A program made the translations under genes and the position numbers. DNA of 64,000 nucleotides from Candidatus Binatia bacterium (GTDB taxonomy: Bacteria; Desulfobacterota; Binatia; UBA9968), in contig DASXRG010000136.1 in NCBI GenBank assembly GCA_036506735.1, positions 17,654-81,653 of the forward strand, in the 5' to 3' direction. A model generated the notes under the pieces. It was not told the origin of the DNA, did no database searches, and worked only from the letters and a program-made list of their open reading frames with translations. Shown here piece by piece: positions 13,120-45,265 of this stretch (the stretch's first letter is position 1; every line of letters begins with the position of its first letter).

Positions 13120-14031
13120 ATGAGCCAGCTCCATATCGATGAACGACAGTCCGCGCGCCACGCGGACCTCTCCGACCATCATCACGAGGCGAACCGGCTC
13201 GCGCGGGAAGGGCGTCTCGCCCAGGCGGTGGCCCAGTGGGAGCTGTCGTTGAACGACGCGCCGCAATGCGCCGCCACCCATTACAATTTGGGGCTCGCCT
13301 ACTATCGCCAGGGAAATTTCGCCAAAGCCGCGAGCCATTGGCAAAAAGCCGCCGATGTCGATCCGCGCCATCCCGAGGCCCCTTATGCGTTGGGCCTCGC
13401 CTACTCCGAGCAAGGGCTGGTCGATCAGGCGAGAGACACTTTCGAGAGATTTCTGCAAACCAACCCGCGCCACCCCGCGACCTTGAATAATTTGGGACTC
13501 CTGCAGGCGCAAAAGCAACGCTTCGAAGAGGCGGCCGATTATTTCCGCCGGGCGATAGAAGCCAACCCCGGCTATGCCAACGCTCACTACAATCTCGGGA
13601 CCGTGTGGTATGAACAGGGAAAATATCCGGAGGCGATCGAAGCATTAAAGAAAGTTCTCGATCTCGAGCCGGGCTACGCCATGGCGCACCATAATCTCGG
13701 CCTCTGTCACGATCGTCTGGGAAATTTTGACGATGCGGAAAGATCGTTCCATCAAGCGCAGGCCTTGGATCCCGATTTCCCGCCGGCCTATTACAATCTC
13801 GGTCTCGTCTACTATCATTGGCAGCGATATGACGAAGCGATCGCGAGCTACCGCCAGGCCAAGGCTCGCGGGTTCGACAACTCGCTGCTCCGCTATGAGT
13901 TAGGCCTCGCTTATTCGGCTCTCGGCAGGAAATACGAGACGCTGAAGGTGTGGCAATCGATCGTCGCGGACGACCCGCACGGGCCACTGACCCCGGAAGT
14001 CAAGCTGCGGATCGCCGACCTCTTCACATAA
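13120..14031 (+). CDS. Tetratricopeptide-repeat (TPR) protein
   Basis: At least seven canonical TPR units (HYNLGLAYYRQGNFAKA...; AHYNLGTVWYEQGKYPEAIEALKKVLDLEP...). Start 6 nt after the Q/T-rich gene stop, with AGGAG RBS, indicating an operon. Confidence 0.8.
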   Translation: MSQLHIDERQSARHADLSDHHHEANRLAREGRLAQAVAQWELSLNDAPQCAATHYNLGLAYYRQGNFAKAASHWQKAADVDPRHPEAPYALGLAYSEQGLVDQARDTFERFLQTNPRHPATLNNLGLLQAQKQRFEEAADYFRRAIEANPGYANAHYNLGTVWYEQGKYPEAIEALKKVLDLEPGYAMAHHNLGLCHDRLGNFDDAERSFHQAQALDPDFPPAYYNLGLVYYHWQRYDEAIASYRQAKARGFDNSLLRYELGLAYSALGRKYETLKVWQSIVADDPHGPLTPEVKLRIADLFT

Positions 14032-14033
14032 TC

Positions 14034-15011
14034 TCACTGGTCACGCAAAACTTTTTCCAACGGCCCGTTTTCCCGGAACGGCTCCGGCCATCCCAGATAT
14101 TCTTTGAACTCGGGACGTTTTCCGATCAAGTCTTTCACCACGTTGTCGATCCCCTTGTCCGGCACCCGAGGCGCCCGCTTGAAAAGCGGCGCGTACACGG
14201 CCACCGACCGTTTGACGATCCCGAGATCTTTTTCCCGCAGCCATTTGGCAAACGACTTTTCCGCCAACGCGCGATCCTTTCGGATCAAATGAATCGCCGC
14301 GACGTAGGCCCGGAGAAAGTCCTCGGTGAGCTTCGGCTCCGCTTTGATAAACGCGCGGCTGCTGGTCACGCAGGATGAAGGATAAATCAAATCCGTTTTG
14401 CTGAGATCGACGAGCACCGGCCAGCCGCGATCCAAAAAAGATATCGCGTAGCGGGTCGTCAGGGCGGCTGCGGCGATGCGCCCCGCTTCCAACGCCGCGA
14501 CCATTTCCGGCCCGGCGCCCAACTGCAGGACCGTCACGTCCCGCTCGGGATCGAGGCCGGCGTGCTTCAGCGCCGCGCGGAGATAGAAATGCGTGCTCGA
14601 ACCGTAGCGCGTCACGCCGCTCGCCAGGCCCTTGAGCTCCGCCGGCGACTTGATTTCGGGACGCGCGATCAGGTAGACGGGGTCGGTGTCGATGGGACAG
14701 GCGAGCAAAACCACGTCGCCTCCCGCCACCCGCGCCGCCACCACCGATTCCGCGCCGACGCCGGAAAACGGCAGATCGCCGGTGATGATGACCAGCGCAA
14801 TCAATGAGCCGCCGCGAATCTGCACCGGCTCGACTTCCAAGCCATGCCGGGCAAAAAGGCCGGCGTCTTTCGCCACCCAGACGGGAAGATGCGCGGGCGA
14901 GGCGGTCGTTCCGTAGTAGATGCGTCTCAGCTCCTGCGCCGGGGTTGGCCGGCCAACCAGGAGCAACGCCGCGCAGATGGCGAGCTGAATTTTAAATTTG
15001 AAGCCGGTCAT
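14034..15011 (-). CDS. NMT1/SsuA-like periplasmic SBP (nitrate/sulfonate/bicarbonate family), orphan
   Basis: Signal peptide MTGFKFKIQLAICAALLLVGRPTPAQ. SsuA-like core (GGSLIALVIITGDLPFSG..., VVLLACPIDTDPVYLIARPEIKSPAELKG). Confidence 0.75.
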   Translation of the reverse strand: MTGFKFKIQLAICAALLLVGRPTPAQELRRIYYGTTASPAHLPVWVAKDAGLFARHGLEVEPVQIRGGSLIALVIITGDLPFSGVGAESVVAARVAGGDVVLLACPIDTDPVYLIARPEIKSPAELKGLASGVTRYGSSTHFYLRAALKHAGLDPERDVTVLQLGAGPEMVAALEAGRIAAAALTTRYAISFLDRGWPVLVDLSKTDLIYPSSCVTSSRAFIKAEPKLTEDFLRAYVAAIHLIRKDRALAEKSFAKWLREKDLGIVKRSVAVYAPLFKRAPRVPDKGIDNVVKDLIGKRPEFKEYLGWPEPFRENGPLEKVLRDQ

Positions 15012-15159
15012 CGCGACTCGACCCGGCCGGGCTGTGACGGGCGACAGACCTCAGCCGCAGTCTTGATAATCGCTTATATTCCGCGGAACGTTCGCCCGTC
15101 AACGGGAGAAATGTTGGGGCTTTGGAGCGAATGGGCCTGTTCACGAAGGAATGCGACGG

Positions 15160-15603
15160 CTACTTTCCCCGCACCGTCAGCACCGGGCAGAAAGCCTGCG
15201 AGACGACCCGGCTGGCAACGCTGCCCATGAGCAACTTTGAAATGCCGGTGCGGCCGTGCGTGCCGATCACGATCATGTCGGCGCGGCGATTTTTCGCGGC
15301 GCGAACGATTTGATCGTGCGCCACGCCTTTGAGCAGCAGGTTCGTCACCTTGATTTTCGTCCGCTTGAGTTTGTTCGCCAGCGTCGCGAGCGAAGACTGC
15401 GCTTGCTGCCGGGCGGTTTTTTCCAACTCGACATAGAGAAGCGGATCCGCCTCGGGCTCCGGCGGATACATCACGTGCGGGACCAGAACGTGGACCAGCA
15501 GCAGCTCGGCTTTGAATTGTTTGGCAAAATCCACGGCTGTTTCCAGCGCCCGGCTCGAGGCCTTGGAAAAATCGGTCGCATGGAGAATCCGACGCAGTTT
15601 CAT
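15160..15603 (-). CDS. Universal stress protein (UspA family)
   Basis: MKLRRILHATDFSKASSRALETAVDFAKQFKAELLLVHV...IVIGTHGRTGISKLLMGSVASRVV is the UspA ATP-binding motif (G-x2-G-x9-G(S/T)). Confidence 0.75.
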   Translation of the reverse strand: MKLRRILHATDFSKASSRALETAVDFAKQFKAELLLVHVLVPHVMYPPEPEADPLLYVELEKTARQQAQSSLATLANKLKRTKIKVTNLLLKGVAHDQIVRAAKNRRADMIVIGTHGRTGISKLLMGSVASRVVSQAFCPVLTVRGK

Positions 15604-15662
15604 AACACCCTCCCCTGCCCTCACCGCTTATCCAGAGTTATGACGCGCCGCCGCAAAAGCAC

Positions 15663-16067
15663 TTACAATGAAGTGCGATGCCGATGATAAGTGTGGTCGG
15701 GGTGATCGTCCGGATGCCGTTCTACGTCCGGATGACGCTCTACGGGATAAGCTTCTCTTTCTCCTCCAAGTCGCGCATTCTCGATCTCCAGTTCGTGGAC
15801 CCGCTGTTCGAGCTCAGCCACCGTGCGCCGGCTATTTCTCACCGCCCGATCTCTGCCGTAAATGGTCATCCTTGCCGAAACGGACTGAGCCACGTAAAGA
15901 ATCCACGCGATGAGGAGCCCGGCGAGGAGCGAGCCGACTACGACTAAATACAGCGGGACTTCCTCCAGGGCGTACTCCGCGAGCCGGATCGTCACGGGAA
16001 CCGTATTTTGAGTTGCAAAGTAACCGATGCCCAATCCAAAAACCACCGCAATAAGTAAAGGTAACAT
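15663..16067 (-). CDS. LapA-like (DUF1049) small inner-membrane protein
   Basis: Two N-terminal TM helices, then a coiled segment (ELEQRVHELEIENARL) and a His/Asp-rich tail. Architecture typical of the lipopolysaccharide assembly protein A family. Confidence 0.5.
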   Translation of the reverse strand: MLPLLIAVVFGLGIGYFATQNTVPVTIRLAEYALEEVPLYLVVVGSLLAGLLIAWILYVAQSVSARMTIYGRDRAVRNSRRTVAELEQRVHELEIENARLGGEREAYPVERHPDVERHPDDHPDHTYHRHRTSL

Positions 16068-16197
16068 AGTTCGCTCCTTCCTATAGACACACGCTTCTAA
16101 AAAATTTTACCGGCGTTGGAAAAACAAGTCGATCCGGGTGAATACCTTATGCGTATAAACTCTGCCGCCGGGTGTCAGGTAAGGACTAGGGCGGCCG

Positions 16198-17190
16198 TCA
16201 CTCGACCTTGTAGCCCAGCTCCTTGGCGATTTCGATCGCGAATCTGGGCTCGGCGACGTCTTGAAACGATACGGTCTTGGCGGAGGGTTTGAGCTGCGAC
16301 TGGACCATTTTGATGATGTTGTTCATGCCTTCTTCCGTCGGAATGCCGGTGTCATTGAAGTTGCTTTGCACCAGGCTATAGGTTTCCGCGGCGGTTTCCC
16401 GATCCATATTGAGGACGCGCACGATCAGATCGATAGTTTTTTCTTTCGCCTTGAGCATCTCTCTTTTGGCGAGCTGCAGCGCGCGAATCAGTCTCTTGAC
16501 CTCGTCGGGACGGTTTTTGATCGTTCGAAGCATCGCGGTCAGTCCGCCCGACGGCATCTCGACCAGCGCGCCGACGTCGAGCAGTTTACGAAAACCCTGC
16601 CGCTGGGCGAAAAACATATAAGGAGGATTCAGGGACGCGGCGTCGAGAAACTTCGATTCCAACGAGGAGACGAGCTGCATCGGCGGCACGGACATGATGA
16701 TGAAATCTTTGGCGTTGAATCCCTGCTTCTCCAGCGCGAACGTCAACGCGACGTGGCTGGTGCCGCCGAGACCGCTTACGCCGATGCGCTTTTGTTTGAG
16801 ATCGTGAACGGTTTTAAATTCCGGCCGCGCCATCAGCCAATAGGCGATCCGGTTGGTCGACGACCACACGGCGCGGGAGTCGAGGCCGCTCAGGCTCGCC
16901 CCGACCGTCGCCGGCCCGATGCCCGATTGGTAGTCGAGATCTCCCGAGACCAGCGCGGCGGCCGCGGCCGACGAGCGCATGAGGATGATCTCGACTTCGA
17001 GCCCCTGGCCGGCGAAAAATTTCCAGTCGCGCGCCGCGATCAGCGGCAGCGCGGTGAAGCTGAAGTTGGCATTGGAGATTCTAATCCTGCGCCGCTCTTG
17101 CGAGCCGGCGCTCGCAGCGTGGAGCAAAAAGAAAACCAGCAGGCACGCGGCGGACAACCGGCGGAGCGAGCTTTCGAGTCGCATCGTCAA
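16198..17190 (-). CDS. NMT1/SsuA-like periplasmic SBP, orphan
   Basis: Signal peptide LLVFFLLHAASAGSQ. SsuA-like motifs (VSGDLDYQSGIG; KQKRIGVSGLGGTSHVAL). 4-nt overlap with the upstream SBP gene. Confidence 0.75.
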   Translation of the reverse strand: MTMRLESSLRRLSAACLLVFFLLHAASAGSQERRRIRISNANFSFTALPLIAARDWKFFAGQGLEVEIILMRSSAAAAALVSGDLDYQSGIGPATVGASLSGLDSRAVWSSTNRIAYWLMARPEFKTVHDLKQKRIGVSGLGGTSHVALTFALEKQGFNAKDFIIMSVPPMQLVSSLESKFLDAASLNPPYMFFAQRQGFRKLLDVGALVEMPSGGLTAMLRTIKNRPDEVKRLIRALQLAKREMLKAKEKTIDLIVRVLNMDRETAAETYSLVQSNFNDTGIPTEEGMNNIIKMVQSQLKPSAKTVSFQDVAEPRFAIEIAKELGYKVE

Positions 17191-18185
17191 CGGCCCTGAC
17201 CCGGGAAAACCGCGCTGTCGCGGACCTTGTTGAGCAGGCTCATGTCTTCGAGGTCGTCCGGCGTAAACGTCTTGGCGATTTTCAAGGTCTCGCGATAAAT
17301 TTCGATCTCCGTCTCCACCGCCTTGCGCGGCTTCGTGCCGTCTTTGCTGTAACTCGGCAGCATCGCGGTAAACGATTTTTCCGCCAGCACCGGATCGATT
17401 TTGTGAAAAGCCGCGATGTACTGAATCATTTCGTTCCGGTTCGCCGGATTGTGCAAGTAGGCCATGGTTTTGAGTAAGCCGGCGATCAGCGTCTGTGCTT
17501 TAGTGGAATTTTTCGCCAGCGTGACCGTTGAAGTCACGAGACCGATGAAGCTCAAAGGCGCGTATGCCTTGGCTTCGGCGAGATGGCTGTATCCTTTCGC
17601 TTCGAGCTCTTGCGCGAACGGCGGCGCCAGCATCGTCGCCGCGACCTTGCCGGTCGTCAAAGACTTGTAAGCGGTCTCGGTCACGCCAGTGGAGAGCAAA
17701 GTGACGCGCGCGGGATCGACGCCGTTCGCTTTTAAAATTATTTTCGCCGCCATGCCGGTGGCGTCGGTGATCGCGTTCACGCTGACGACCTTGCCGGCCA
17801 GCTCTTGAACGCTCTTCAGCTCCGGCTGGCCGACGAGCACGTGCGCCGGCTCGTGCTGCACATAAAAAATGCGCCGCAGCGGATGGCCCTGCATGATGGC
17901 GGAAGTCGCCGCTCCCAGCGTCGTGGAAAAATCCAGCTCGCCGGCGACGAGAGCGACGATGGCGGTCGGCGGCGCCATTGCGACGAACTGTATTTCGATC
18001 GCTTCCCGGGGAAAGAAACCCTTATCCTTGCCGAAGTAGTAAGGCATCAGCGCAAGGCTCTTCGAAGGAATGTGGATCGTGACCTTGGCCGGCTGCGATG
18101 CGGGTTGGCTGAGCGATGGCCAAAGAACCGACACGACGGCGAAAACGACGACCGACAGCAGCCATCGACGCGCAGCACTCTTCAC
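17187..18185 (-). CDS. NMT1/SsuA-like periplasmic SBP, orphan
   Basis: Signal peptide MKSAARRWLLSVVVFAVVSVLWPSLSQPASQ. SsuA-like core (VAGELDFSTTLGAATS; LAGKVVSVNAITDATGMAAKI). Confidence 0.75.
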   Translation of the reverse strand: MKSAARRWLLSVVVFAVVSVLWPSLSQPASQPAKVTIHIPSKSLALMPYYFGKDKGFFPREAIEIQFVAMAPPTAIVALVAGELDFSTTLGAATSAIMQGHPLRRIFYVQHEPAHVLVGQPELKSVQELAGKVVSVNAITDATGMAAKIILKANGVDPARVTLLSTGVTETAYKSLTTGKVAATMLAPPFAQELEAKGYSHLAEAKAYAPLSFIGLVTSTVTLAKNSTKAQTLIAGLLKTMAYLHNPANRNEMIQYIAAFHKIDPVLAEKSFTAMLPSYSKDGTKPRKAVETEIEIYRETLKIAKTFTPDDLEDMSLLNKVRDSAVFPGQGR

Positions 18186-18214
18186 GAGACTCCCATTAGA
18201 ATTGATTGACCGTG

Positions 18215-18409
18215 TTATGTTTCGTATTGCTCAAGAGCGCCCGGCACCGGGCAATAAGGCAAGCACTCTCCGCAACCCGTGCATTCTTTCTCGATGACCT
18301 CGAACCGGTGGTGGATCTCCTGCATCATGGGGTGCACGGCGCCCTCGGGACAGGCTTCCCGGCAGAGACCGCAAGCGATGCACAGGCTCTGATCGATTCT
18401 GACTTTCAT
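18215..18409 (-). CDS. 2x[4Fe-4S] ferredoxin (64 aa)
   Basis: MKVRIDQSLCIACGLCREACPEGAV...EKECTGCGECLPYCPVPGA contains two CxxCxxCxxxCP motifs. Its ATG overlaps the TGA of the upstream gene (ATGA). Confidence 0.7.
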   Translation of the reverse strand: MKVRIDQSLCIACGLCREACPEGAVHPMMQEIHHRFEVIEKECTGCGECLPYCPVPGALEQYET

Positions 18410-19164
18410 GCGGGCGGCTCGCCTCCGCCCGCACCGCCCAAGGCGCGGGTCGGCGCAGACGCCCAGGGCTTGAGCAGGAAATCGAAAACTTCTTCGATGG
18501 GCTTTTGATCTTCGGGAGTCAACGCGTAGGCGTCGATTTGATATTTTCCTTCCATGAAGTGCATCATCTCCTCGACCTCCTGGCTGCGCAACTGGTGGCG
18601 GATCAAAGGATCGTCGACAACGCTCAAGGTCGCCGTGATGCTCAAGCATGCGGTCGCTTCGTTGAAGTAGTGCTGGCCCGCGCGAGCGAGCGGGTGGATG
18701 TGCGGGAACATCGACGTCATGCCGAAGTAGGCGAGCTTGGGCTGCGTATTCGCGCGCGGATCGTCCATCAACTCCTCCTCCCGTTTGACCCAACCGCCGC
18801 GAATGAGCACGTCCGCGTGGAGCTGGCCGTGCTTGACTTCGTCCCAGATCTGGCGCGCCCGCATGCGCTGAAGATCGATGTACTTGGGCTGCTCGTCGAC
18901 CGTCACCGAAAGGATCTGCGTCGACATCTGCTTGATCGACATGCAGGGCCCCTCGACGGCATATCCGGCCAAAGCCCGCGCGGCCTTCCAATCGTCGCGC
19001 CCCGACTTGAGATCCGCCGCGGCGGTCTTCAGCGCTCCGGCCACAATGTTGTCCCAGACCGGAATGCAGCGCTCGGTCTGGCGCATGCGAAAATCGACCC
19101 CGGCGCCGGCGAAGCCTACCGGATAGACCCACTTGGTTAAAAAATCTTCCAGAATCGGCTGCAT
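18406..19164 (-). CDS. Hypothetical protein (252 aa), possibly an all-alpha metal-binding or diiron/heme-oxygenase-like enzyme, ferredoxin-coupled
   Basis: No recognisable family. Contains EEMMHFMEG (ExxH) and HIHP motifs. Translationally coupled to the downstream ferredoxin. Confidence 0.5.
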   Translation of the reverse strand: MQPILEDFLTKWVYPVGFAGAGVDFRMRQTERCIPVWDNIVAGALKTAAADLKSGRDDWKAARALAGYAVEGPCMSIKQMSTQILSVTVDEQPKYIDLQRMRARQIWDEVKHGQLHADVLIRGGWVKREEELMDDPRANTQPKLAYFGMTSMFPHIHPLARAGQHYFNEATACLSITATLSVVDDPLIRHQLRSQEVEEMMHFMEGKYQIDAYALTPEDQKPIEEVFDFLLKPWASAPTRALGGAGGGEPPA

Positions 19165-19173
19165 GAAATCGCG

Positions 19174-19467
19174 CTACTCCTCGGCCGCTTTCGACGCGGC
19201 GCTACGCGGCCATCTGAGATCGTCGGTCCAGACCTCGGGCGGCGGAGGAACGAGAGATCTGCCGGTGTCCGATTCGACGATCGATCCTTCCGCCGGACAG
19301 TACATGAGACAAACCGTGCACTTCGGATAGATGCAGCGATCGTCGATCTCCAAGAGATGCTGGTCGGTAGAGGAGACCACGACGGCGTTCAAGTTGATCT
19401 CCCGGCACGCGACGTAGCACATCCGGCACTCGGTGCATTTTGCGTGGTCGATTTTTAAGCGCGCCAT
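19174..19467 (-). CDS. 2x[4Fe-4S] ferredoxin (~97 aa)
   Basis: MARLKIDHAKCTECRMCYVACREINLNAVVV...DDRCIYPKCTVCLMYCPAEGSI contains two Cys clusters. Start assigned to the internal ATG; the ORF could extend to 19524. Confidence 0.65.
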   Translation of the reverse strand: MARLKIDHAKCTECRMCYVACREINLNAVVVSSTDQHLLEIDDRCIYPKCTVCLMYCPAEGSIVESDTGRSLVPPPPEVWTDDLRWPRSAASKAAEE

Positions 19468-19483
19468 GACCTGGACCAATCCC

Positions 19484-20239
19484 TCAATCGATGTCGGCGG
19501 AGATGATCTCTCCCCTCTCCTCAACTTCCATCTCGAGCACGAATCGGGCGACCTCTTCGAGCATGAACAGGTAATCGCGCCGGACCTCGGCGCAAAGTCG
19601 CCGCGCGAGCTCGACGTCGACCGCCTTCTTGACGAACCGCTCCACCTGAAGGCGCCCCATCAAGACGTGGCTCCGAGTCTCGGCGCGCTGGCTCGAAAAG
19701 ATTTGACGGATCGGTTCGTCGGGTAGCGACGCGGCGAAGCGGTCGAGCCAAACCAACTCCATGGCCTTCGGTCCCAAGTTCAACGCCGCGATCCTGAGAT
19801 TCTGCGGATAGTTGGCCAGCGCGCGCAGGCTGAAGATAAACGAAGCGACGCGGGTTGCGGGAACGAGCCGGCAGTAAGGGTGCTCGAATGCCCGCCTCTG
19901 GGTGCGCGCCCACTTGCGCCTCAGAATCTCGTCCAGGTACTGCATCTCGTGCATGGAGTCGTCGTAAATCTGCTTGCCGAAAAGGTAGGCGACCGTCGGC
20001 GGGTATTCGTTCAAGTTGATCCCCAAGGCCCAACCACCGTAGACGTAGTACATGAGCCGCTTCACCGTCCATAGCCGGCCGAGGAGCTTGAAGTAGTGAT
20101 CGTCGCCGAATTCGCCTCTGCGCGCCGCGGCCAGCAGCGCGTCCATCGGTGTCGTCGAGGCCTCCTCCTCGCTTTGCCGGCGCAGCTCGTCGGCGAGAGC
20201 GGCGCCCGGTTTTTCGATTGAAGAGCTCATCGCATGCAT
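19484..20239 (-). CDS. Hypothetical protein (251 aa), unknown helical protein, possible metalloenzyme
   Basis: LWTVKRLMYYVYGGWALGINLNEYPP...DDSMHEMQYLDEILRRKW. No confident family assignment. Sits directly between the BNR gene and ferredoxin 2. Confidence 0.5.
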   Translation of the reverse strand: MHAMSSSIEKPGAALADELRRQSEEEASTTPMDALLAAARRGEFGDDHYFKLLGRLWTVKRLMYYVYGGWALGINLNEYPPTVAYLFGKQIYDDSMHEMQYLDEILRRKWARTQRRAFEHPYCRLVPATRVASFIFSLRALANYPQNLRIAALNLGPKAMELVWLDRFAASLPDEPIRQIFSSQRAETRSHVLMGRLQVERFVKKAVDVELARRLCAEVRRDYLFMLEEVARFVLEMEVEERGEIISADID

Positions 20240-20240
20240 T

Positions 20241-21359
20241 TCAGCTTGCGGCGAGAAGACGCTCGTGCCCCTTCTTGGAAATCGGCGCGAGCCCGGACGC
20301 GATCAGAGTCCAGTGCTCGCCGCCGTCCTCACTTGAGTAAATCTCGCCGCCGGTCGTGCCGGCAAAAACCGAGTATCCTTCGCCCCAATCAACCAGACAC
20401 AAGGCACCGATCTCGTGCTTCATCCTGTCGGGGAGCCCGCCCGCCAGCCTCTTCCAGCTCCGTCCCCCATCCTCGCTGCGATAAATCTTGCCGCCGGCCT
20501 CGGCGAGCGCTCCGCGCGCGCGCCAGGTGCTCGGGTTGTGTTCAGCGGCGGAGACAAACATGACGTCCGGCCGCCGCGGATTCAGAACGAAGCCGTCCGG
20601 GTAGACGTCTTCCGCCCAGTCGGAACTGGTCCATCGCTCCCAGCCGCCTCCGCCATTGAAAGTGACGTACAATCCCGCCCCGCCGGTGAGGTAGATCCTT
20701 TCCGGGTCGCGCGGATCGATGAGCGCCCGGTGCACGTCATAGAAATGCTCCACCGGACGGTTCTTGTCCCGGAGGAAGCCGACCGTATTGAGCTCGGCCC
20801 AGCTTTTTCCCGCGTCGGCGCTCTTTAGAAACGCGCCCTGTTCGATGCAGGCGTAGATGGTGTCGGGCGTGCGGGGATCGAACGTGATGAATTTCGTGTG
20901 CGCGACGTGCGGCGGAGCCGGGAACGACCAATCCTGGACGCTCGGCACCGCGCGCAGAGAGGGCAGCTCCGTCCAGTGAAGCCCCAGGTCGTCGCTGTAG
21001 AAGAGGTGCGCCGGCTCCGTGCCGGCATAAATCCGAACCTTGCCGTCCAACTGAGCCGAAGCCAAACTGTAAACGTCTTGATAGGTCAGCCCTCGGTCGC
21101 GCCGCTCCCAACTTTTCCCGCCGTCCGCGCTGGCGTGGAGCGAGCCGAAGAACGCGCCGGCAAAGAGCTGGCCTTGACTCGGCTCGCTGACCATCGAGCT
21201 GATGTGCAGTCCGCGCAGCGCGCGATGGGCCGCGCGCCACTCTGTGCCACCGGAGCGCTCCAGAAGAACGAGACCGTCTTGAGTCCCGACCCATACCTGC
21301 CGCGGCCGCTCAGTGGACGTATAGACATTCGAGCCACCGTGAGTAAGTCCGATTTCCAT
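20241..21359 (-). CDS. BNR/Asp-box repeat beta-propeller protein (Ycf48/sortilin-like), no signal peptide
   Basis: Six SxDxGxxW Asp-box motifs (SADGGKSW, SDDLGLHW, SADAGKSW, TFNGGGGW, SEDGGRSW, SEDGGEHW). Confidence 0.7.
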   Translation of the reverse strand: MEIGLTHGGSNVYTSTERPRQVWVGTQDGLVLLERSGGTEWRAAHRALRGLHISSMVSEPSQGQLFAGAFFGSLHASADGGKSWERRDRGLTYQDVYSLASAQLDGKVRIYAGTEPAHLFYSDDLGLHWTELPSLRAVPSVQDWSFPAPPHVAHTKFITFDPRTPDTIYACIEQGAFLKSADAGKSWAELNTVGFLRDKNRPVEHFYDVHRALIDPRDPERIYLTGGAGLYVTFNGGGGWERWTSSDWAEDVYPDGFVLNPRRPDVMFVSAAEHNPSTWRARGALAEAGGKIYRSEDGGRSWKRLAGGLPDRMKHEIGALCLVDWGEGYSVFAGTTGGEIYSSEDGGEHWTLIASGLAPISKKGHERLLAAS

Positions 21360-21398
21360 ATTTTTCCTCCCGACGTCGAGTCAGCTCGTCTTACCATC

Positions 21399-22418
21399 CT
21401 ACTTTCTGTAAAGCGCCGCAACAAAGCCGCTCTGCTCGATCCGCTTCACATACGAAGGATCGATAATCAGATTCGGATCCGTCTGCTTTGCCTGGGGGTA
21501 TTGGAACGAGACCATGTCCAACGCGGTCTTGATGACCGGCAAAGAAGGATGCGGCGCGGCTTCCACCACCGCGGCCGTGTACTGATAAATATCCTCCAGA
21601 ATCTCTTCGCTCGTCCCCCTCATGTACTGTCTCATGACCGCCAGCGCCTTTTGTTTGTTCGTTTTGAAGATAAAAATCCCCTCGATGACGCATTTCAAGA
21701 CCTTTTCCACGAGCTCGGGATTCTTGCTCAAAGTTTGTCTGAGGGTGGTCACCGTGTTGTAGGGATACTCGATTCCGAGCCGGTCGTAATTCGACAGCTC
21801 GCGGAAGCCCATTTTCCTCGCGATCAGCAGGTATGGAATCGAAACGGCCGCCGCGTCGACGACGCCCCGCTCCAGCGCCTGCAGCGAGAGAGTCGGCTCA
21901 CCCATGGGCAACAGCTTCACGTCCCGATCGGGCGTGAGGCCATATTTCGCCGGCAGCACGTACCGCACCATCGCATCGAGAAACGCCCCCGGGCGTCCCG
22001 TCGCCAGAGTTTTGCCTCTCAACTCTTCGACGCTCTTGATTTCGGTTTTCGAGACGATCCCTGATCCGACTTTATTGGTTACCGTCGCGATGATCACCTG
22101 GTCCCTGACGCCGAGAACGTGCGAGGTCACCGCGCCGGTGCCCGTGGCGACGACGAACGGCACTTCGCCGCTCGCCAGCAACTGCTGCGGCCGCACACGT
22201 CCCGCATAGACGGCCTTCAAATCCAGACCGTATTTGGTCCCCAGCCTCTCTGCCACCGCGATCCACAGCGGAATGTACGGACCTGAAAAAGACGAATAAC
22301 CGACTGTAAGGCTTTCCAACCGGGATGCGGCGAGACATGGGGCTGCAAAGACGGCCCATCCATAGACGAGCCACAGGCCGATGAGATATTTTTTGTTGGC
22401 CACGGAGGTCGCCGTCAC
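21399..22418 (-). CDS. NMT1/SsuA-like periplasmic SBP, orphan
   Basis: Leader LIGLWLVYGWAVFAAPCLAAS. SsuA-like core (LLASGEVPFVVATGTGAV; LRGKTLATGRPGAFLD). Confidence 0.75.
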   Translation of the reverse strand: MTATSVANKKYLIGLWLVYGWAVFAAPCLAASRLESLTVGYSSFSGPYIPLWIAVAERLGTKYGLDLKAVYAGRVRPQQLLASGEVPFVVATGTGAVTSHVLGVRDQVIIATVTNKVGSGIVSKTEIKSVEELRGKTLATGRPGAFLDAMVRYVLPAKYGLTPDRDVKLLPMGEPTLSLQALERGVVDAAAVSIPYLLIARKMGFRELSNYDRLGIEYPYNTVTTLRQTLSKNPELVEKVLKCVIEGIFIFKTNKQKALAVMRQYMRGTSEEILEDIYQYTAAVVEAAPHPSLPVIKTALDMVSFQYPQAKQTDPNLIIDPSYVKRIEQSGFVAALYRK

Positions 22419-22560
22419 GGCGGAGAAGTCTGAGTCTCGTTACCACTTCTGACAATGACAAATCAATAGATGAAGCCAAGCCGCCGGCGGCTTGACACAA
22501 AGAGCCAGCCGTAATTATAACGTACCAGCTAATCTGTTTCGTGCCGTCCTCTGAAGGATC

Positions 22561-23778
22561 GTGATCATCGTGAAAACCAACGGAACTGCGCCGCTCTCCG
22601 GGTATCGAGTCTTGGACCTCGCGGGGCCGTTGGCTTTTCATTGCGTGAAGCTCCTGGCGGATATGGGCGCGGACGTGGTGAAGGTAGAACCGCCGGGCGG
22701 CGATCCGGCGCGTCATGTCCCACCCTTCAAGGATGACATGCCGCATGCAGAGAAGAGCCTCTATTTCCTACACTACAACACCAACAAGCGCGGCATCACC
22801 TTGAACTTGGATGCGCGTGAGGGGCGGTCGATTTTCTTGCAGCTTGCCCGCTCGGCGCACGTGGTGGTCGAGACGTTTCGCCCTGGACACATGGACGAGT
22901 TGGGTCTGGGCTACGGTGCGCTGAGCGGCACTAACCCAGGCCTCGTCATGGCGTCTCTCACCCCATTCGGGCAGACAGGTCCGTGGCGCGACTACAAGGC
23001 GACCGACATCGCCGGCCTCGCGCTCAGCAACCTGATGGTCATGACCGGCGAGCCCGGCGAGCCTCCCCTGCAGGCGCCCGGCGAGGTGGCCTACGGCATG
23101 GCGTCGACTTACGGGGCATTCGGCGTCGCCGTTGCCCTCTATCATCGCGAGAACGGCGGCAAGGGCCAGCACATCGACGTGTCGATGCACGAGTGCGGCG
23201 CTCACATCGCCGGCTACTTCATTCCTCAATACGGCGCCACCGGCGCCAAGCCCAGCCGCGCCTCGCGCAAAGGCGAAGAGACCGATCTTTATGATCCGTA
23301 TCCGGCGAAAAATGGATACGTGCGGATCTTCATCATTCCGTCGGAGCAGTGGCGCAGGCTGGTGGACTGGATGGGCCGTCCGGAAGCGATCGCGGGCCCG
23401 GAGTTCGAGAAGATGGAACACCGCCGGCAACATCCGGAGCCGGTTCTAAGGACGATCACGGAATTTTGCAAGCGCCACACTAAAGAGGAACTCTACGAGG
23501 AAGGGCAAAAACGCCGCATCAGCGTGACGCCGATCAATACGGCGCGTGAATTCATGGAGAGCGCCCACACGAAGGCGCGGCATCTCTTCCTCGAGATGGA
23601 GCACCCGGCCGTCGGCAAATATCTCCACTACGGCCCGGTTCCGAGATTCAGCGAAACGCCGGGCCGGGTAACTAGAACCGCGCCGCTGATCGGCGAGCAC
23701 AACGAGGAGATCTACTGCGGCGAGCTGGGTTTTTCCAAAAAGGACCTCATCACGCTGGGCGCGGCCGGGGTGATTTAG
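22561..23778 (+). CDS. CoA-transferase family III (CaiB/BaiF-type)
   Basis: LSGYRVLDLAGPLAFHCVKLLADMGADVVKVEPPGGDP is the N-terminal family III signature. Conserved Asp region (MVMTGEPGEPP). GTG start. Confidence 0.85.
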   Translation: MIIVKTNGTAPLSGYRVLDLAGPLAFHCVKLLADMGADVVKVEPPGGDPARHVPPFKDDMPHAEKSLYFLHYNTNKRGITLNLDAREGRSIFLQLARSAHVVVETFRPGHMDELGLGYGALSGTNPGLVMASLTPFGQTGPWRDYKATDIAGLALSNLMVMTGEPGEPPLQAPGEVAYGMASTYGAFGVAVALYHRENGGKGQHIDVSMHECGAHIAGYFIPQYGATGAKPSRASRKGEETDLYDPYPAKNGYVRIFIIPSEQWRRLVDWMGRPEAIAGPEFEKMEHRRQHPEPVLRTITEFCKRHTKEELYEEGQKRRISVTPINTAREFMESAHTKARHLFLEMEHPAVGKYLHYGPVPRFSETPGRVTRTAPLIGEHNEEIYCGELGFSKKDLITLGAAGVI

Positions 23779-23786
23779 GAGGAGCC

Positions 23787-24995
23787 ATGCAGCAGCTTCC
23801 ATTGGAGGGGATTCGAGTCCTCGAGCTGACCACCGGCGCGGCCGGGCCTACCTGCGCGCGCGTGCTTTGTGAGTTTGGCGCCGAGGTAATCCGAGTCGAG
23901 ACCCGGTTGCGCGGCGACGGCCACAGAGGCGAGGACCCGAAGAAATGGAACAAGAAACCGGATTTCGTAAAACTCCATCGGGGCAAGAAGTCCTTCACCG
24001 TGAACATGAAGCTGGACAAAGGGCGCGAGCTGGTCAAGCAGCTGGCCAAGAAATGCGACGTGCTGGTCGAGAACTACGGCCTGGGTGTCTTGGAAAGGTG
24101 GGGGCTCGATTATCCCCAACTGAAAGAGCTGAATCCATCCTGCATTCTCGTGCGCGTCAAGGGGCTGGGCTGCACCGGCCCGCACGCCGCGGATCTCACC
24201 TGGGGTCCAAACGTAGGAAACATCATGGGTGGCACCTACTTGTGGAATTATCCCGGAGCCACCACCGCGACGGCGGAGCCCAGGACTCAGCATCCCGACT
24301 TCATGGGTGGCGTGACCGGCGCTTTCGCCGTGGTCCTCGCCTTGATGCAGCGGAAAAAAATCGGACAGGGGCAATGGATCGACAACGCGCAGCTCGAGAT
24401 CGGCGCATCGCTCCTCGGTCCGCGCTATCTGGAATACTCCGTCAACGGCCGGGAGCCTGGGCCCGAGGGAAACCGGAGTCTCGTCGCCGCGCCTTACGGG
24501 GCCTACCGATGCAAGGGCGACGACCGTTGGTGCGCCATCGCCGTTTACACTCAAGAGGAATGGGAAAAATTCTCGCGCTTGCTGGAGCACTCGGGCCTGG
24601 ACCGCAACGGCCAGTTCACGACCCACTTGGAGCGCGTGCGCCGGCGGGAAGAGTTGGATCGCTGGGTCGAGATGTGGACCAGCCAGCGCGACGCCTATGA
24701 AGTGATGGAAAAGCTGCAAGGGATCGGGGTCTGCGCCGCGGTGGTGCAGGATGTGGAGGACCAATTCACGCGCGACGCCCAGTACGCCGCGCGCGGCTTC
24801 CTCGTGAAGCTTAAAGAGCCCGAGGCCGGGGTAGTGGTGACGGAAGGTATTCCCGTGCGGTTGTCGGAGACGCCGGGAAGGGTGCGCGGCGCCGCGCCGC
24901 TCATGGGCGAACATACCCAGGAAATCGCTCGCGACCTGCTCGGGCTCAGCGACGCAGAGATCAAAACTTTAGAGCAGGAAGGCGTTTTGACTTAA
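23787..24995 (+). CDS. CoA-transferase family III (CaiB/BaiF-type), paralog
   Basis: LEGIRVLELTTGAAGPTCARVLCEFGAEVIRVE. GGAGG RBS. Starts 8 nt after the upstream paralog. Confidence 0.85.
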   Translation: MQQLPLEGIRVLELTTGAAGPTCARVLCEFGAEVIRVETRLRGDGHRGEDPKKWNKKPDFVKLHRGKKSFTVNMKLDKGRELVKQLAKKCDVLVENYGLGVLERWGLDYPQLKELNPSCILVRVKGLGCTGPHAADLTWGPNVGNIMGGTYLWNYPGATTATAEPRTQHPDFMGGVTGAFAVVLALMQRKKIGQGQWIDNAQLEIGASLLGPRYLEYSVNGREPGPEGNRSLVAAPYGAYRCKGDDRWCAIAVYTQEEWEKFSRLLEHSGLDRNGQFTTHLERVRRREELDRWVEMWTSQRDAYEVMEKLQGIGVCAAVVQDVEDQFTRDAQYAARGFLVKLKEPEAGVVVTEGIPVRLSETPGRVRGAAPLMGEHTQEIARDLLGLSDAEIKTLEQEGVLT

Positions 24996-25016
24996 ACACA
25001 AGAAAGGGGAATCAGC

Positions 25017-25835
25017 ATGCCAGAACCAATTCTCATCTACGAGAAAAGAGATCCTCATATCGCTATCATTCGACTCAACCGGCCGGAGAAAAAGAACTCG
25101 ATCAGCAGCGAGCTGCACTGGGCGCTCGACGAGGCGTGGCACAAGGCCAAAGACGATGAGGACGTCTGGAGCATTATTCTCACCGGCTCGGGGGATTCGT
25201 TCTGCGCGGGGGGCGACTTAAAAGAGAATCTGGCGTCGGCCCGCGGCGAGCTTAAGAAACCTCGCTTCGGAAATCGAACCTACTCGAATCTCCGCGACCT
25301 GGAGCTCCATAAGCCGATAATCGCCGCGATCAACGGCTACGCGGTGGGCGGCGGCTTCAGCCTGGCGCTCAACTGCGACATACGCTATTGCGTTCCGGCG
25401 ACGAAGTTCGGTTGTTCCGAGGTCCGTTGGTCCCACCTGGCCGCGTGGCCGGCCTACGTGTGCACTCTGCCTCTGGGCTGGGCTTTTTGGTTCGCATTCA
25501 CCGGACAGACGGTCGACGCGGAGACGGCTTTTCGCCTCGGACTGGTGCAGAAGATCTGCGAGCCGGAGAAGCTCCTCGACGACTGCGTGGAGCTATGCAC
25601 GATCATCAACCGCAATGGAAAGTTGATCGCGGCCCACACAAAAGAATACATCTACAAGCTCTTGTATGAGATTCAGGGCTGGGAGCAAGGCTACAAGGTG
25701 CACCGGGACTATTACACCCACCTGCGCCAGAGCAAGGACTACGATGAGGGCTCCGCAGCTTTTGCCGAAAGGCGCAAACCGGAGTTTACCGCCACTTATT
25801 ACGACAAGAAGGACAAGCCGCCGGGAGTTCCCTAA
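25017..25835 (+). CDS. Enoyl-CoA hydratase/isomerase (crotonase) family protein, divergent
   Basis: IAIIRLNRPEKKNSIS...ILTGSGDSFCAGGDLKE...PIIAAINGYAVGGGFSLALNCDIRY are canonical. The usual second oxyanion-hole segment is replaced by SEVRWSHLAAWPAYVCTLPLGWAFW. Confidence 0.75.
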   Translation: MPEPILIYEKRDPHIAIIRLNRPEKKNSISSELHWALDEAWHKAKDDEDVWSIILTGSGDSFCAGGDLKENLASARGELKKPRFGNRTYSNLRDLELHKPIIAAINGYAVGGGFSLALNCDIRYCVPATKFGCSEVRWSHLAAWPAYVCTLPLGWAFWFAFTGQTVDAETAFRLGLVQKICEPEKLLDDCVELCTIINRNGKLIAAHTKEYIYKLLYEIQGWEQGYKVHRDYYTHLRQSKDYDEGSAAFAERRKPEFTATYYDKKDKPPGVP

Positions 25836-25839
25836 CCCT

Positions 25840-26916: not shown

Positions 26917-26939
26917 GAGGGTCTCCTTACTTGACGGTT

Positions 26940-44749: not shown

Positions 44750-45265
44750 TCAGGACCTTGTCCCAAGAACATCCTTGGTCAATAACACCGCCACCGGCCG
44801 GTTCGAGTCTTCCGCCAAGATCCAGGCGTTCTTGAAAGTCCAATCGATGTCTTCCACGCTGCGCAGGACGTAGTGCCGGACGCCTAAAGCATCCAAGACG
44901 GGTATCGTCGCGGTTCCGACTCTGGCGAAGCCCCGATCGCCGATATCGCCCGCGTAATAAATAACCAGAAGCATCGGCAGCTCGAGTTGTATCCCCGTCG
45001 TCACGATGCCGTTGCAGCTGTTGAGCAGCCCCGCATTCTGCATGAGCATCGCCGGCTTTTTTCCGACCAAGCGGGCGCCGGCGCAAATCCCTATTCCCTC
45101 TTCCTCACGGCACAGAGGGACGTGGATGATCTCTGCGTCGCGCTCGAGGGCGTCGATGAGATCGAGGCAGTTGATATCCGGAAGGCTCGCAACGAGATTG
45201 ACCCCGGCTTTTTTCGCGCCGTCCAGGATCGCCCGAGCCCTGGCTTTTGCGTCCATCTCAGTCAC
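44750..45265 (-). CDS. Sulfopyruvate/phosphonopyruvate decarboxylase alpha subunit-like (TPP_enzyme_N, ComD-like)
   Basis: 171 aa. ...IHVPLCREEEGIGICAGARLVGKKPAMLMQNAGLLNSCNGIVT... is a ThDP pyrimidine-binding domain. 4-nt overlap with the upstream SBP gene. Confidence 0.7.
   Translation of the reverse strand: MTEMDAKARARAILDGAKKAGVNLVASLPDINCLDLIDALERDAEIIHVPLCREEEGIGICAGARLVGKKPAMLMQNAGLLNSCNGIVTTGIQLELPMLLVIYYAGDIGDRGFARVGTATIPVLDALGVRHYVLRSVEDIDWTFKNAWILAEDSNRPVAVLLTKDVLGTRS

Follow-up and report, generated by a model that had tools for sequence, protein, structure and literature searches.

The locus under study raises the question of what is performed by two proteins of about 250 residues, here designated A and B, whose genes alternate on the minus strand with those of two small ferredoxins within a 64,000-nucleotide stretch of DNA from Candidatus Binatia bacterium (hereafter, the window). 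The five genes recognized there in a preliminary description are real and correctly delimited:

20241-21359, minus strand: BNR propeller protein, 372 aa
19484-20239, minus strand: protein A, 251 aa
19174-19467, minus strand: ferredoxin Fdx1, 97 aa, counted from ATG
18406-19164, minus strand: protein B, 252 aa
18215-18409, minus strand: ferredoxin Fdx2, 64 aa

Judging by its homologues, the true start of A may be the fourth codon (ATG at 20230); the mechanical ORF of Fdx1 begins upstream of the listed start, with TTG at 19524. The tight spacing pointed out earlier is evident from the sequence: the gaps amount to 1 nt (BNR–A), 16 nt (A–Fdx1) and 9 nt (Fdx1–B), and the B/Fdx2 junction is the single ATGA overlap, through which Fdx2 appears to be translationally coupled to B. 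The BNR gene had been regarded as opening the operon, but it is possibly not the first gene, as a same-strand NMT1-type gene ends 39 nt upstream of it. Two more genes of this type follow Fdx2:

21399-22418, minus strand: NMT1/THI5-type periplasmic substrate-binding protein (Pfam NMT1, 49.3 bits)
17187-18185, minus strand: NMT1-type binding protein (matches Pfam NMT1)
16198-17190, minus strand: NMT1-type binding protein (matches Pfam NMT1)

The upstream gene may be the initial one of the transcription unit; in L008, L018, L020 and L025, too, BNR is immediately preceded by a same-strand gene for a similar substrate-binding protein (SBP). The downstream pair, which begins 29 nt past Fdx2 and overlaps internally by 4 nt, is possibly co-transcribed with the cassette; a search for a convincing terminator between Fdx2 and this pair found none. 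Since as many as 11 NMT1-type SBP paralogues are present in the window, their linkage to the cassette should be considered weak evidence.

The conserved unit comprises four genes, A-Fdx1-B-Fdx2. This block is present in approximately 140 uncultured bacterial species. Of 80 species-level genomes, which represent at least five lineages (Binatia, Rokubacteria/Methylomirabilota, Chloroflexota, Gamma- and Alphaproteobacteria), nearly all retain its order. Upstream of B, A was found in 73 and Fdx1 in 71 of the 74 loci with enough upstream DNA, while Fdx2 follows B in 75 of the 77 loci with enough DNA downstream; given these counts, the association of the genes is far above chance. The flanking genes differ strongly from clade to clade, and the cassette travels as a self-contained unit through very different neighbourhoods. 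Loss of the ferredoxin pairing at homologous loci had been named as an observation that would speak against a redox role of A and B; the pairing is kept across phyla and is sometimes reinforced by fusion, B and Fdx2 being joined in three separate clusters or loci (P0180; P0194/L005; L062). A ferredoxin also adjoins the remote homologues P0303, P0290, P0337 and P0329, including single-subunit ones. None of the loci examined has a reductase gene within the cassette or next to it.

The BNR propeller, in turn, is a clade-specific accessory outside this module: an orthologue (at least 50% identity) precedes A in 24 of 69 loci, all 24 come from the Binatia-type clade, and the loci of the other clades lack it. 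Its identity as an Asp-box protein agrees with Pfam (Sortilin-Vps10, 49.3 bits against a cut-off of 33; PSII_BNR, 39.2 against 27; BNR, 36.5 against 27) and with six Asp-box motifs at residues 77, 122, 180, 233, 295 and 343; an obvious signal peptide was not seen at its N-terminus. Relatives of this protein are annotated in their sources as 'photosystem II stability/assembly factor-like' or 'exo-alpha-sialidase'.

Both small proteins are assigned by Pfam to 4Fe-4S families, and they are distinct from each other, as proposed earlier. Fdx2 is a canonical 2x[4Fe-4S] ferredoxin with the CxxCxxCxxxCP motif occurring twice (Fer4, 50.9 bits at a cut-off of 21.1), and all its eight cysteines are at least 97% conserved among 78 sequences. 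Fdx1 is an atypical 2x[4Fe-4S] ferredoxin with the pattern CxxCxxCxxxCR ... CxxxxCxxCxxxCP, which exceeds the cut-off of Fer4_6 (27.3 vs. 25) and falls below that of Fer4_21 (33.5 vs. 35); in 78 sequences its eight cysteines are at least 99% conserved, as is its proline-rich tail GRSxVPPPPExW.

Searches of Pfam (E<=1), NCBIfam (E<=10) and PDB sequences (E<=10) gave no match for either A or B, in accordance with the initial impression that they have no recognizable family. AF2 models both with confidence as all-helical proteins (pLDDT 77.1 for A and 86.7 for B), as had been predicted. The top Foldseek matches of both are the heme-oxygenase-like di-iron enzymes UndA, PolF, AetD, BesC, CADD, HrmI and RohS, along with TenA, PqqC and the ferritin-like MiaE; TenA homologues, PolF, AetD, BesC and CADD are the best for A, and UndA, a TenA homologue and MiaE for B. 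The agreement in fold is modest (TM 0.5-0.6; Foldseek E of 5e-3 at best), and on the models the proteins could be classed as either heme-oxygenase-like or ferritin-like. Confident homology to a non-redox structural family, the other outcome named beforehand as adverse, was not encountered, the nearest folds being mainly di-iron oxidases.

The candidate di-iron ligands of B are E71, E109, H112, E169, E199 and H202. All 82 orthologues share these six residues, which are also invariant in the alignment with eight remote homologues of 17-28% identity, in which the only other invariant columns are F25, G206 and two predicted second-shell residues, D118 and D185. The resulting pattern, E / ExxH / E / ExxH, is predicted to be a complete four-carboxylate, two-histidine ligand set; the last ligand helix reads Q-x3-E-x2-H, which points to this set instead of one with three histidines and three carboxylates. 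In the AF2 model, E71 is placed at a helix break (E-G-P) between helices 58-71 and 73-83. The family profile of B matched a sole PDB entry, the UndA orthologue 3oql, in a co-linear alignment over about 150 residues that sets E109xxH112 and E169 against its ExxH and Glu. Moreover, one remote homologue yielded sub-threshold Pfam matches solely to di-iron families (COQ7, the ribonucleotide reductase small chain and rubrerythrin). The motifs singled out in the preliminary description fared unequally: EEMMH (E199xxH202) is universal, HIHP is conserved within the B family only, and the histidine of SMHEM, H97 of A, gives way to Gln in 14 of the 71 orthologues of A.

Contrary to the earlier view of A and B as unrelated proteins, both blastp (E 7.5e-6) and hhalign (E 5e-5) identify them as distant paralogues, the profile alignment spanning 113 columns with both metal motifs included. 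The counterpart positions in A, K/E60, D/E94xxH/Q97, E161 and E187-T/N188-xx-H191, look like a degenerate version of the ligand set of B: position 60 is Lys in about half of the loci and Glu in those of Alphaproteobacteria type, and Thr or Asn always occupies the canonical carboxylate position of the last helix. Accordingly degenerate, A may not be a second catalytic oxidoreductase. Nevertheless, its conservation is as strong as that of B (77% mean column identity), with the YYVYGGW motif, E161, E187 and H191 invariant. A-like proteins were always seen adjoining a B-like one, whereas B-like proteins also occur without an A-like partner. The remote locus L091 also holds an A-like and B-like pair, and the A-like protein there has no ferredoxin of its own, since its 95-aa neighbour is devoid of Cys motifs.

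Hints on the substrate come from the neighbouring genes. In the window, three genes are transcribed divergently from the cassette:

22561-23778, plus strand: CoA-transferase CoAT1 (Pfam CoA_transf_3)
23787-24995, plus strand: CoA-transferase CoAT2 (Pfam CoA_transf_3)
25017-25835, plus strand: enoyl-CoA hydratase (Pfam ECH_1)

Among proteins of solved structure, CoAT1 is best matched by a subunit of the two-subunit benzylsuccinate CoA-transferase (3.9e-63). Orthologues of all three (85-90% identity) stand directly after Fdx2 on the same strand in L046, the closest relative, and we regard the three genes as candidate pathway partners. In L037, L040 and L041, the gene immediately preceding A encodes a CoA-transferase. 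The operon of the remote homologue P0303 includes genes of a hydrolase, SnoaL, NicX, CoA_transf_3 and ECH, and P0298 is flanked, with overlapping genes, by a PaaK-like ligase on one side and by an SDR and a thiolase on the other. LigB-type dioxygenase genes adjoin three independent versions, with genes for UbiD, Amidohydro_2, Rieske and MarR proteins in the vicinity. The recurrence of family-III CoA-transferases, PaaK-like ligase, enoyl-CoA hydratase, thiolase, LigB, UbiD and Rieske proteins in unrelated contexts suggests an aromatic or carboxylic acid as the substrate, possibly in the form of a CoA thioester. For the main family the link to CoA is weak: the CoA-transferases of the window have a BLAST match in just 7 of 87 loci, which may be mere background in lineages rich in these enzymes.

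The proposal that A and B are metal-dependent (di-iron or heme-oxygenase-like) oxidoreductases with dedicated ferredoxins is thus supported by fold, ligand pattern and ferredoxin pairing. In a more specific form, to which we lean by a modest degree, the product of the cassette is a ferredoxin-dependent di-iron oxidase or oxygenase whose family had not been annotated before, with B as the catalytic subunit and A as its auxiliary paralogue. Two Fe(II) ions would be held by the six candidate ligands of B, within an all-helical fold nearest to the heme-oxygenase-like di-iron oxidases; Fdx2 would dock on B and bring the diferric site to the diferrous state, and the reduced cluster would react with O2 to oxidize the substrate. 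A carboxylic acid, aromatic or other, is the probable substrate and may be handled as its CoA thioester. A would be an ancient paralogue of B in which some of the ligands have been lost; most likely it forms a hetero-oligomer with B, as a structural or substrate-binding subunit comparable to PaaC in relation to PaaA, and Fdx1 would either serve A or relay electrons from a cellular reductase. The BNR propeller and the NMT1-type binding proteins would represent lineage-specific additions in this organism. A purely structural role for A is uneasy, because it is as conserved as B and has its own dedicated ferredoxin.

It is conceivable, though we give it rather limited credence, that A and B are separate catalytic metalloenzymes of successive steps in one pathway, each reduced by a dedicated ferredoxin (Fdx1 for A, Fdx2 for B), and that they form no hetero-complex. 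The gene pattern can be read as a tandem repeat of 'helical protein + ferredoxin', the invariant residues of A fit such a function, and in Alphaproteobacteria-type loci E60 with E94, H97, E161, E187 and H191 could form a six-ligand site with a shifted ExxxH. Against this stand the substitutions in A at position 60, at H97 and in the last helix, the A-like protein of L091 without its own ferredoxin, and the constant presence of a B-like neighbour. As to the chemistry, the nearest folds would also suit a biosynthetic heme-oxygenase-like di-iron oxidase system acting on a small metabolite by N-oxygenation, desaturation or C-C fragmentation, as in SznF, BesC, UndA, AetD and PolF, and the self-contained mobility of the cassette fits a module making or modifying a common metabolite. 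We consider this unlikely, as NRPS, PKS or other biosynthetic cluster genes are absent from all loci seen and the recurring neighbours are catabolic (LigB, UbiD, Amidohydro_2, Rieske, CoA-transferase, ECH and thiolase).

Still less probable, in our estimation, is a ferredoxin-driven protective or iron-handling system devoid of an organic substrate, which would reduce peroxide or O2 like rubrerythrin or oxidize iron like ferritin. The four-carboxylate, two-histidine set, the sub-threshold rubrerythrin and COQ7 matches of a remote homologue, and the lack of a universally conserved substrate-specific partner are compatible with it, as is the adjoining Fe-S electron donor, a role played in rubrerythrin by its rubredoxin domain. 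However, A and B give no rubrerythrin or ferritin match in Pfam even at E<=1, their structural neighbours are mainly substrate-oxidizing enzymes, with Dps and ferritin appearing in the search with B only at ranks 46-50 (TM about 0.3-0.4), and the remote homologues sit in tightly packed catabolic operons. The position of TenA homologues high among the fold matches, chiefly those of A (1rtw, TM 0.60/0.70), and the NMT1/THI5-type proteins flanking the cassette in the window and several Binatia loci could indicate metal-free TenA/PqqC-type enzymes, engaged for instance in thiamin-pyrimidine salvage with ThiY-like proteins, the ferredoxins being incidental. This we hold to be very improbable: the invariant residues follow a metal-ligand pattern, the ferredoxins accompany the proteins across phyla, sometimes as fusions, and cassette neighbourhoods of other clades contain no SBPs. 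Furthermore, adjacency of NMT1-type genes is expected by chance with so many paralogues in the window, and there is no conserved Cys at position 74 of B, the residue of the window protein being Phe or Gln in the homologues compared.

Among known systems, the heme-oxygenase-like di-iron oxidases (HDOs: UndA, SznF, BesC, AetD, PolF, CADD, RohS and HrmI) come closest in structure to both A and B, and are likewise all-helical proteins of about 250 residues which need external electrons for turnover; an UndA orthologue provides the only profile-to-PDB match, and Glu189, the extra ligand of SznF, is at the tip of a break in auxiliary helix 2, as E71 of B lies at a helix interruption. In contrast to them, A and B belong to no HDO sequence family, the last helix of HDOs typically reads H-x3-D/E-x2-H, and the contexts of the cassette look catabolic, not natural-product. 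A further difference is that a dedicated 2x[4Fe-4S] ferredoxin, in some cases fused, is encoded next to the gene and accompanied by a degenerate paralogue as partner; we know of no characterized HDO with this combination. The ferritin-like di-iron tRNA hydroxylase MiaE shares the tandem ExxH pattern with B (TM about 0.48 normalized by B and 0.59 by MiaE), but it is shorter (about 200 residues), acts on another substrate class and has no ferredoxin pairing, and Pfam, PDB-sequence and profile searches detected no sequence relation between the two. BioE and the cyanobacterial aldehyde-deformylating oxygenase (cADO), two ferritin-like di-iron oxygenases, are likewise small and soluble and carry E / ExxH / E / ExxH ligands; BioE oxidizes acyl-CoA/ACP thioesters (PMC12704756), and cADO, according to the reference list of that paper, receives its electrons from a ferredoxin. 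They differ in fold family (the ADO-like chain 8fhc gives TM of about 0.4 only with B), show no sequence similarity to the cassette proteins, and have no adjacent ferredoxin or degenerate paralogue described.

The electron supply and follow-on chemistry recall the benzoyl-CoA oxygenase BoxAB, a soluble di-iron oxygenase acting on aryl-CoA that receives electrons via two [4Fe-4S] clusters of BoxA and is followed by the ECH-family enzyme BoxC. However, BoxB is about twice the size of the cassette proteins and its structure is absent from the top 50 fold matches of A and B, and BoxA bears FAD and an NADPH site, as no cassette protein does. Homology to the phenylacetyl-CoA epoxidase PaaABC(D)E was not detected (no PF05138 match; hhalign probability <=1% against E. 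coli PaaA and PaaC), and where that system has the flavin/[2Fe-2S] reductase PaaE, the cassette has two stand-alone dicluster ferredoxins and lacks PaaB and PaaD. The likeness is one of organization: a catalytic di-iron subunit, PaaA, is accompanied by its paralogue PaaC (248 aa) without a metal site, the substrate is a CoA thioester, and the neighbouring CoA ligase, ECH-family enzymes, dehydrogenase and thiolase resemble those in the operon of P0298.

Five consecutive genes on the minus strand, reported in the preliminary description, were found by ORF listing and by direct reading of the sequence. These genes, together with the paralogues of a substrate-binding protein (SBP) dispersed around them, are as follows:

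20241-21359, minus strand: BNR, Asp-box beta-propeller protein, 372 aa
19484-20239, minus strand: A, protein of 251 aa
19174-19467, minus strand: Fdx1, ferredoxin, 97 aa, read from an ATG in agreement with the N-terminus conserved among its homologues
18406-19164, minus strand: B, protein of 252 aa
18215-18409, minus strand: Fdx2, ferredoxin, 64 aa
1748-2704, 3875-4819, 14034-15011, 16198-17190, 17187-18185, 21399-22418, 26940-27992, 38301-39263, 39304-40290, 45262-46290 and 61360-62370: NMT1/THI5-type SBP paralogues, detected by BLAST

From BNR to Fdx2 the successive junctions measure 1, 16 and 9 nt, the last one being an ATGA overlap, and the GC content at the third codon position (GC3) is 0.75-0.82 in all five genes, the surrounding genes being alike. 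An NMT1-type SBP gene of the same strand ends 39 nt upstream of the run, and Fdx2 is succeeded by two further such genes, the first 29 nt away and the second overlapping the first by 4 nt; more than five genes may belong to the transcription unit. The scan for consensus promoters and terminators gave counts no higher than those in shuffled sequence and did not delimit the operon, and no RNA element was detected by the Rfam scan of positions 15000-27000 at E ≤ 1. As 11 NMT1/THI5-type SBP genes (4 of them confirmed by Pfam) lie within the 64-kb window, adjacency of an SBP to any operon in it is weak evidence of linkage. Elsewhere on the plus strand, an ORF of 710 aa (10982-13114; GC3 0.76) displays a good coding signal and no Pfam match at E ≤ 1e-3, and 5 nt after it begins an ORF of 303 aa (13120-14031), TPR-like by eye.

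The block A-Fdx1-B-Fdx2, hereafter the cassette, is conserved far beyond this contig. The neighbourhood scan, in which each of 185,579 species was represented by a single genome, revealed 139 genomes with a relative of B, and the best 80 of these 139 are all metagenome-assembled and labelled as Binatia (often as Deltaproteobacteria), Rokubacteria/Methylomirabilota, Dehalococcoidia/Chloroflexota, Gammaproteobacteria including Immundisolibacteraceae, and Alphaproteobacteria including Stellaceae. The gene order is kept almost everywhere: A was present in 73 and Fdx1 in 71 of the 74 loci with enough upstream DNA, and Fdx2 in 75 of the 77 with enough downstream DNA (in L037 and L041, both extremely rich in GC, BLAST and tblastn matches were used in place of GC3 gene calls). 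The pairing with ferredoxins, on which the preliminary description had laid weight, is thus retained at homologous loci, and the anatomy of the cassette and its conservation are matters of direct observation. Clustering of all flanking ORFs revealed nothing beyond the cassette that is common to different clades, and no reductase gene accompanies it in the loci examined. Recurrent neighbours are clade-specific, namely a LigB-type dioxygenase gene upstream and an Amidohydro_2 gene downstream in Alphaproteobacteria, and isochorismatase, GST, DUF3500, NMT1-type SBP and second BNR genes in Binatia.

The BNR protein contains six Asp boxes (S-x-D-x-G-x-x-W) and belongs to the BNR/Asp-box proteins, with Pfam matches over the cut-off to Sortilin-Vps10, PSII_BNR and BNR; its scores against the NCBIfam glycosylhydrolase and Ycf48 models are far under the cut-off. 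Its orthologues were found in 24 of 69 loci, every one in the Binatia-type clade, and it is therefore regarded as accessory and rejected as a core component of the cassette. Binatia-type loci repeatedly carry the second BNR paralogue, 25-29% identical to that of the window, at a distance of 1-6 kb on the downstream side of the cassette (e.g., L008:7666-8640, L017:11393-12361 and L022:9719-10693 of the fetched relatives), often alongside the isochorismatase, GST and DUF3500 genes.

Both small iron-sulfur proteins, Fdx2 and Fdx1, are recognized by Pfam as dicluster 2x[4Fe-4S] ferredoxins (Fer4, 50.9 against a cut-off of 21.1; Fer4_6, 27.3 against 25), and the eight Cys of each are 97-100% conserved among 78 sequences each. 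The Cys pattern of Fdx2 is canonical; that of Fdx1 (CxxCxxCxxxCR ... CxxxxCxxCxxxCP) has atypical spacing, its first motif ending in CR, and is accompanied by a conserved tail, GRSxVPPPPExW. B and Fdx2 form a single ORF in three clusters or loci (P0180, P0194/L005 and L062).

Neither A nor B matched Pfam (E ≤ 1), NCBIfam (E ≤ 10) or PDB chains (phmmer, E ≤ 10), and no description of their family was found in the literature searched. The two had been taken as unrelated, which was not borne out: BLASTP aligned them at E 7.5e-6 over 133 residues, and the profile-profile comparison of the families gave E 5e-5 over 113 columns, with the motifs Q-I-[YW]-D-[DE]-x-x-H and S-Q-x-x-E-x-x-x-H-x-x-x-G aligned. 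On these comparisons, A and B are ancient paralogues. A word-indexed search turned up relatives of both A (545) and B (324), which are without exception "hypothetical" and devoid of Pfam domains, except for two B clusters (313 and 319 aa) with a C-terminal Fer4 domain. When 1.84 billion cluster representatives were searched exhaustively with the HMM profile of B, there were only 112 matches, mostly fragments, with about eight full-length remote relatives. One weak match, P0349 (432 aa), consists of eight tandem units of about 57 residues resembling B residues 67-116 and probably reflects a repeat or faulty assembly, not true relatedness.

Alignment of B orthologues with the remote relatives (17-28% identity) left F25, E71, E109, H112, D118, E169, D185, E199, H202 and G206 as invariant columns. 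Six of these, E71, E109, H112, E169, E199 and H202, are identical in 82 of 82 B orthologues and invariant in 8 remote homologues as well, and their arrangement, E71-(37)-E109xxH112 plus E169-(29)-E199xxH202, reproduces the tandem E...ExxH pattern (four carboxylates, two His) of ferritin-like di-iron-carboxylate oxidases and oxygenases (FDO). This is the ligand set of di-iron-carboxylate enzymes, and the six residues are candidate metal ligands, with D118 and D185 as plausible second-shell partners. The Pfam matches of one remote relative, P0341, all sub-threshold (15 bits), are confined to the COQ7, rubrerythrin and RNR small-chain families. Three His residues of B (H155, H157 and H190; about 18595-18702, minus strand), among them those of the "HIHP" motif singled out in the preliminary description, are invariant or nearly so within the B family, but absent from the remote homologues; they could provide an extra metal site, ferredoxin docking or a substrate contact.

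The corresponding site of A is degenerate and lacks the tandem FDO pattern. At position 60 of A, the counterpart of E71 of B (window about 20060-20062, minus strand), 37 orthologues have Lys and 32 have Glu. H97 is replaced by Gln in 14 of 71, and only Thr or Asn occurs at position 188, which corresponds to E199; E161, E187 and H191 do not vary. In a few aligned sequences, position 60 is Lys in the Binatia-type proteins and Glu in more distant loci, so A may bind metal in certain lineages, but not in others.

AlphaFold2 models built on the family alignments are all-helical for both proteins (B, pLDDT 86.7, pTM 0.85; A, pLDDT 77.1, pTM 0.78). Foldseek against the PDB matched B to UndA (6p5q), the UndA-like TenA homologue 3oql, MiaE, PqqC, PolF, HrmI, RohS and AetD, and A to TenA homologues, PolF, AetD, BesC, CADD, heme oxygenase, PqqC and UndA. 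The top matches of both are chains of heme-oxygenase-like di-iron oxidases (HDO), TenA, PqqC and heme oxygenases, with a TM of only about 0.5-0.6 and best E values of 1.9e-2 (B) and 5.3e-3 (A), which points at most to a fold class for the modelled proteins, with the seven-helix heme-oxygenase-like fold and the four-helix-bundle ferritin fold as candidates, and not to family membership. The sole match of the B-superfamily profile among PDB sequences was again 3oql (E 0.027), co-linear over about 150 residues, its ExxH and Glu pairing with E109xxH112 and E169 of B.

By sequence, neither A nor B belongs to HDO (no Pfam heme-oxygenase-like or TENA_THI-4 match and no significant match to a solved HDO), and B does not carry the HDO ligand pattern (Glu and His in core helix 1, Glu in core helix 2, H-x3-D/E-x2-H in core helix 3). 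Its last ligand helix keeps the register of the latter motif but fails at one position, since in Q195-x3-E199-x2-H202 an invariant Gln replaces the first His. Nor are A and B members of the curated FDO families (PaaA_PaaC, Ribonuc_red_sm, COQ7, Rubrerythrin, MiaE and others; Pfam E ≤ 1, NCBIfam E ≤ 10). Homology to PaaA/PaaC was rejected, as hhalign gave a probability of 1.0% for the B superfamily with Escherichia coli PaaA and 0.2% for the A family with PaaC, and PF05138 (PaaA/PaaC) was matched by neither A, B nor the remote homologues. A TenA-type thiaminase was rejected as well, because the conserved residues make up a metal-ligand pattern and the adjoining NMT1-type SBP genes are of a kind that is very abundant throughout the window.

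As to the substrate, hints come from the neighbourhoods of the remote homologues of B. P0303 lies in a locus with the order TetR, then alpha/beta-hydrolase, ferredoxin, P0303, SnoaL, NicX, CoA_transf_3 and enoyl-CoA hydratase (ECH), and P0290 in the order SBP, UbiD decarboxylase, LigB, a 95-aa protein, an A-like protein, P0290 itself (B-like), ferredoxin and MFS; the E value of the A-like neighbour (245 aa) is 5e-37 with the profile of A, but only 7e-6 with that of B. A ferredoxin gene follows P0337 and likewise P0329, P0298 stands in a run of overlapping genes with a PaaK-like CoA ligase on one side and SDR and thiolase on the other, and P0340 faces a LigB-like gene. In the window, genes of CoA metabolism are located beyond the BNR and SBP genes, two of them being:

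22561-24995, plus strand: CoAT1 and CoAT2, adjacent family-III CoA-transferase paralogues

In this part of the window (18215-25835 in the comparison), CoAT1, CoAT2 and ECH are divergent, and Fdx2 is followed by two SBP genes instead, whereas in L046, the closest relative of the window, their orthologues (85-90% identity) stand on the same strand directly after Fdx2 (L046:1-4238), which points to a recent local rearrangement. A CoA-transferase gene is also located directly upstream of A in three Rokubacteria-type loci. The best solved match of CoAT1 is a subunit of the heteromeric two-subunit benzylsuccinate CoA-transferase (9fn0_A, 3.9e-63), and this suggests that CoAT1 and CoAT2 make up a transferase of two subunits that depends on succinyl-CoA and acts on a substituted dicarboxylic acid. 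A universal link of the cassette to CoA-transferases was not found: BLAST matches occur in only 7 of 87 fetched loci, in lineages rich in such enzymes, so that support for a CoA thioester comes from a small number of tight arrangements and from the remote homologues. That the substrate is an aromatic or carboxylic acid, perhaps in the form of its CoA thioester, is accordingly a lead, and less likely than not.

Taken together, the ligand pattern, the all-helical models and the conserved ferredoxin pairing agree with the earlier reading of metal-dependent oxidoreductases fed by ferredoxins; metal binding, O2 chemistry, complex formation and substrate we infer from sequence, predicted structure and gene context. 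The cassette is best described as an unannotated, phylogenetically scattered four-gene module encoding a putative ferredoxin-dependent di-iron oxygenase, in which B would be the catalytic di-iron subunit, Fdx2 its direct reductant, A an auxiliary paralogue, and Fdx1 a second electron carrier whose partner could be A, Fdx2 or a reductase.

Di-iron oxygenases are responsible for oxidations that rank among the hardest in biology, and research on their heme-oxygenase-like branch is young and growing fast. To our knowledge, the natural electron donors of such di-iron enzymes are mostly unknown. In the studies consulted, they were assayed with chemical reductants; the assay of BioE, for instance, contained NADH and phenazine methosulfate (PMC12704756). 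With ferredoxins inside its operon, the cassette would offer a ready-made system for the study of di-iron cluster reduction in vivo, with a degenerate paralogue built in and a candidate ligand set intermediate between two known scaffolds, and is of moderate to high interest for enzymologists. The A/B family, which neither Pfam nor NCBIfam recognizes, occurs exclusively in lineages of soil and groundwater that are uncultured (Binatia, Rokubacteria, Chloroflexota and Stellaceae) and are thought to be important degraders. If its reaction were assigned, several hundred clusters of "hypothetical" proteins would gain an annotation, and a new catabolic step could emerge.

The proposed mode of action is that of small soluble di-iron oxygenases with an Fe-S donor. 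In the model of B, E71 is located where one helix (58-71) gives way to the next (73-83), in the sequence E-G-P, and this extra Glu resembles Glu189 of SznF, an extra ligand at the tip of the point where auxiliary helix 2 of the heme-oxygenase-like scaffold is interrupted. It is conceivable, though rather unlikely, that the cassette represents, beside PaaABCE and BoxAB, a third type of soluble di-iron oxygenase that arose independently in evolution and acts on CoA-activated aromatic or carboxylic acids, with a heme-oxygenase-like scaffold converged on the ferritin-type set of four carboxylates and two His, and the first such scaffold with a dedicated, sometimes fused, [4Fe-4S] ferredoxin as physiological reductant and a degenerate paralogue as obligate partner. 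Among small di-iron enzymes, BioE is able to act on acyl-CoA (PMC12704756). Like PaaA/PaaC, the cassette pairs a putative catalytic subunit with a degenerate paralogue, A, and like those of BoxAB, its predicted electron donors carry [4Fe-4S] clusters.
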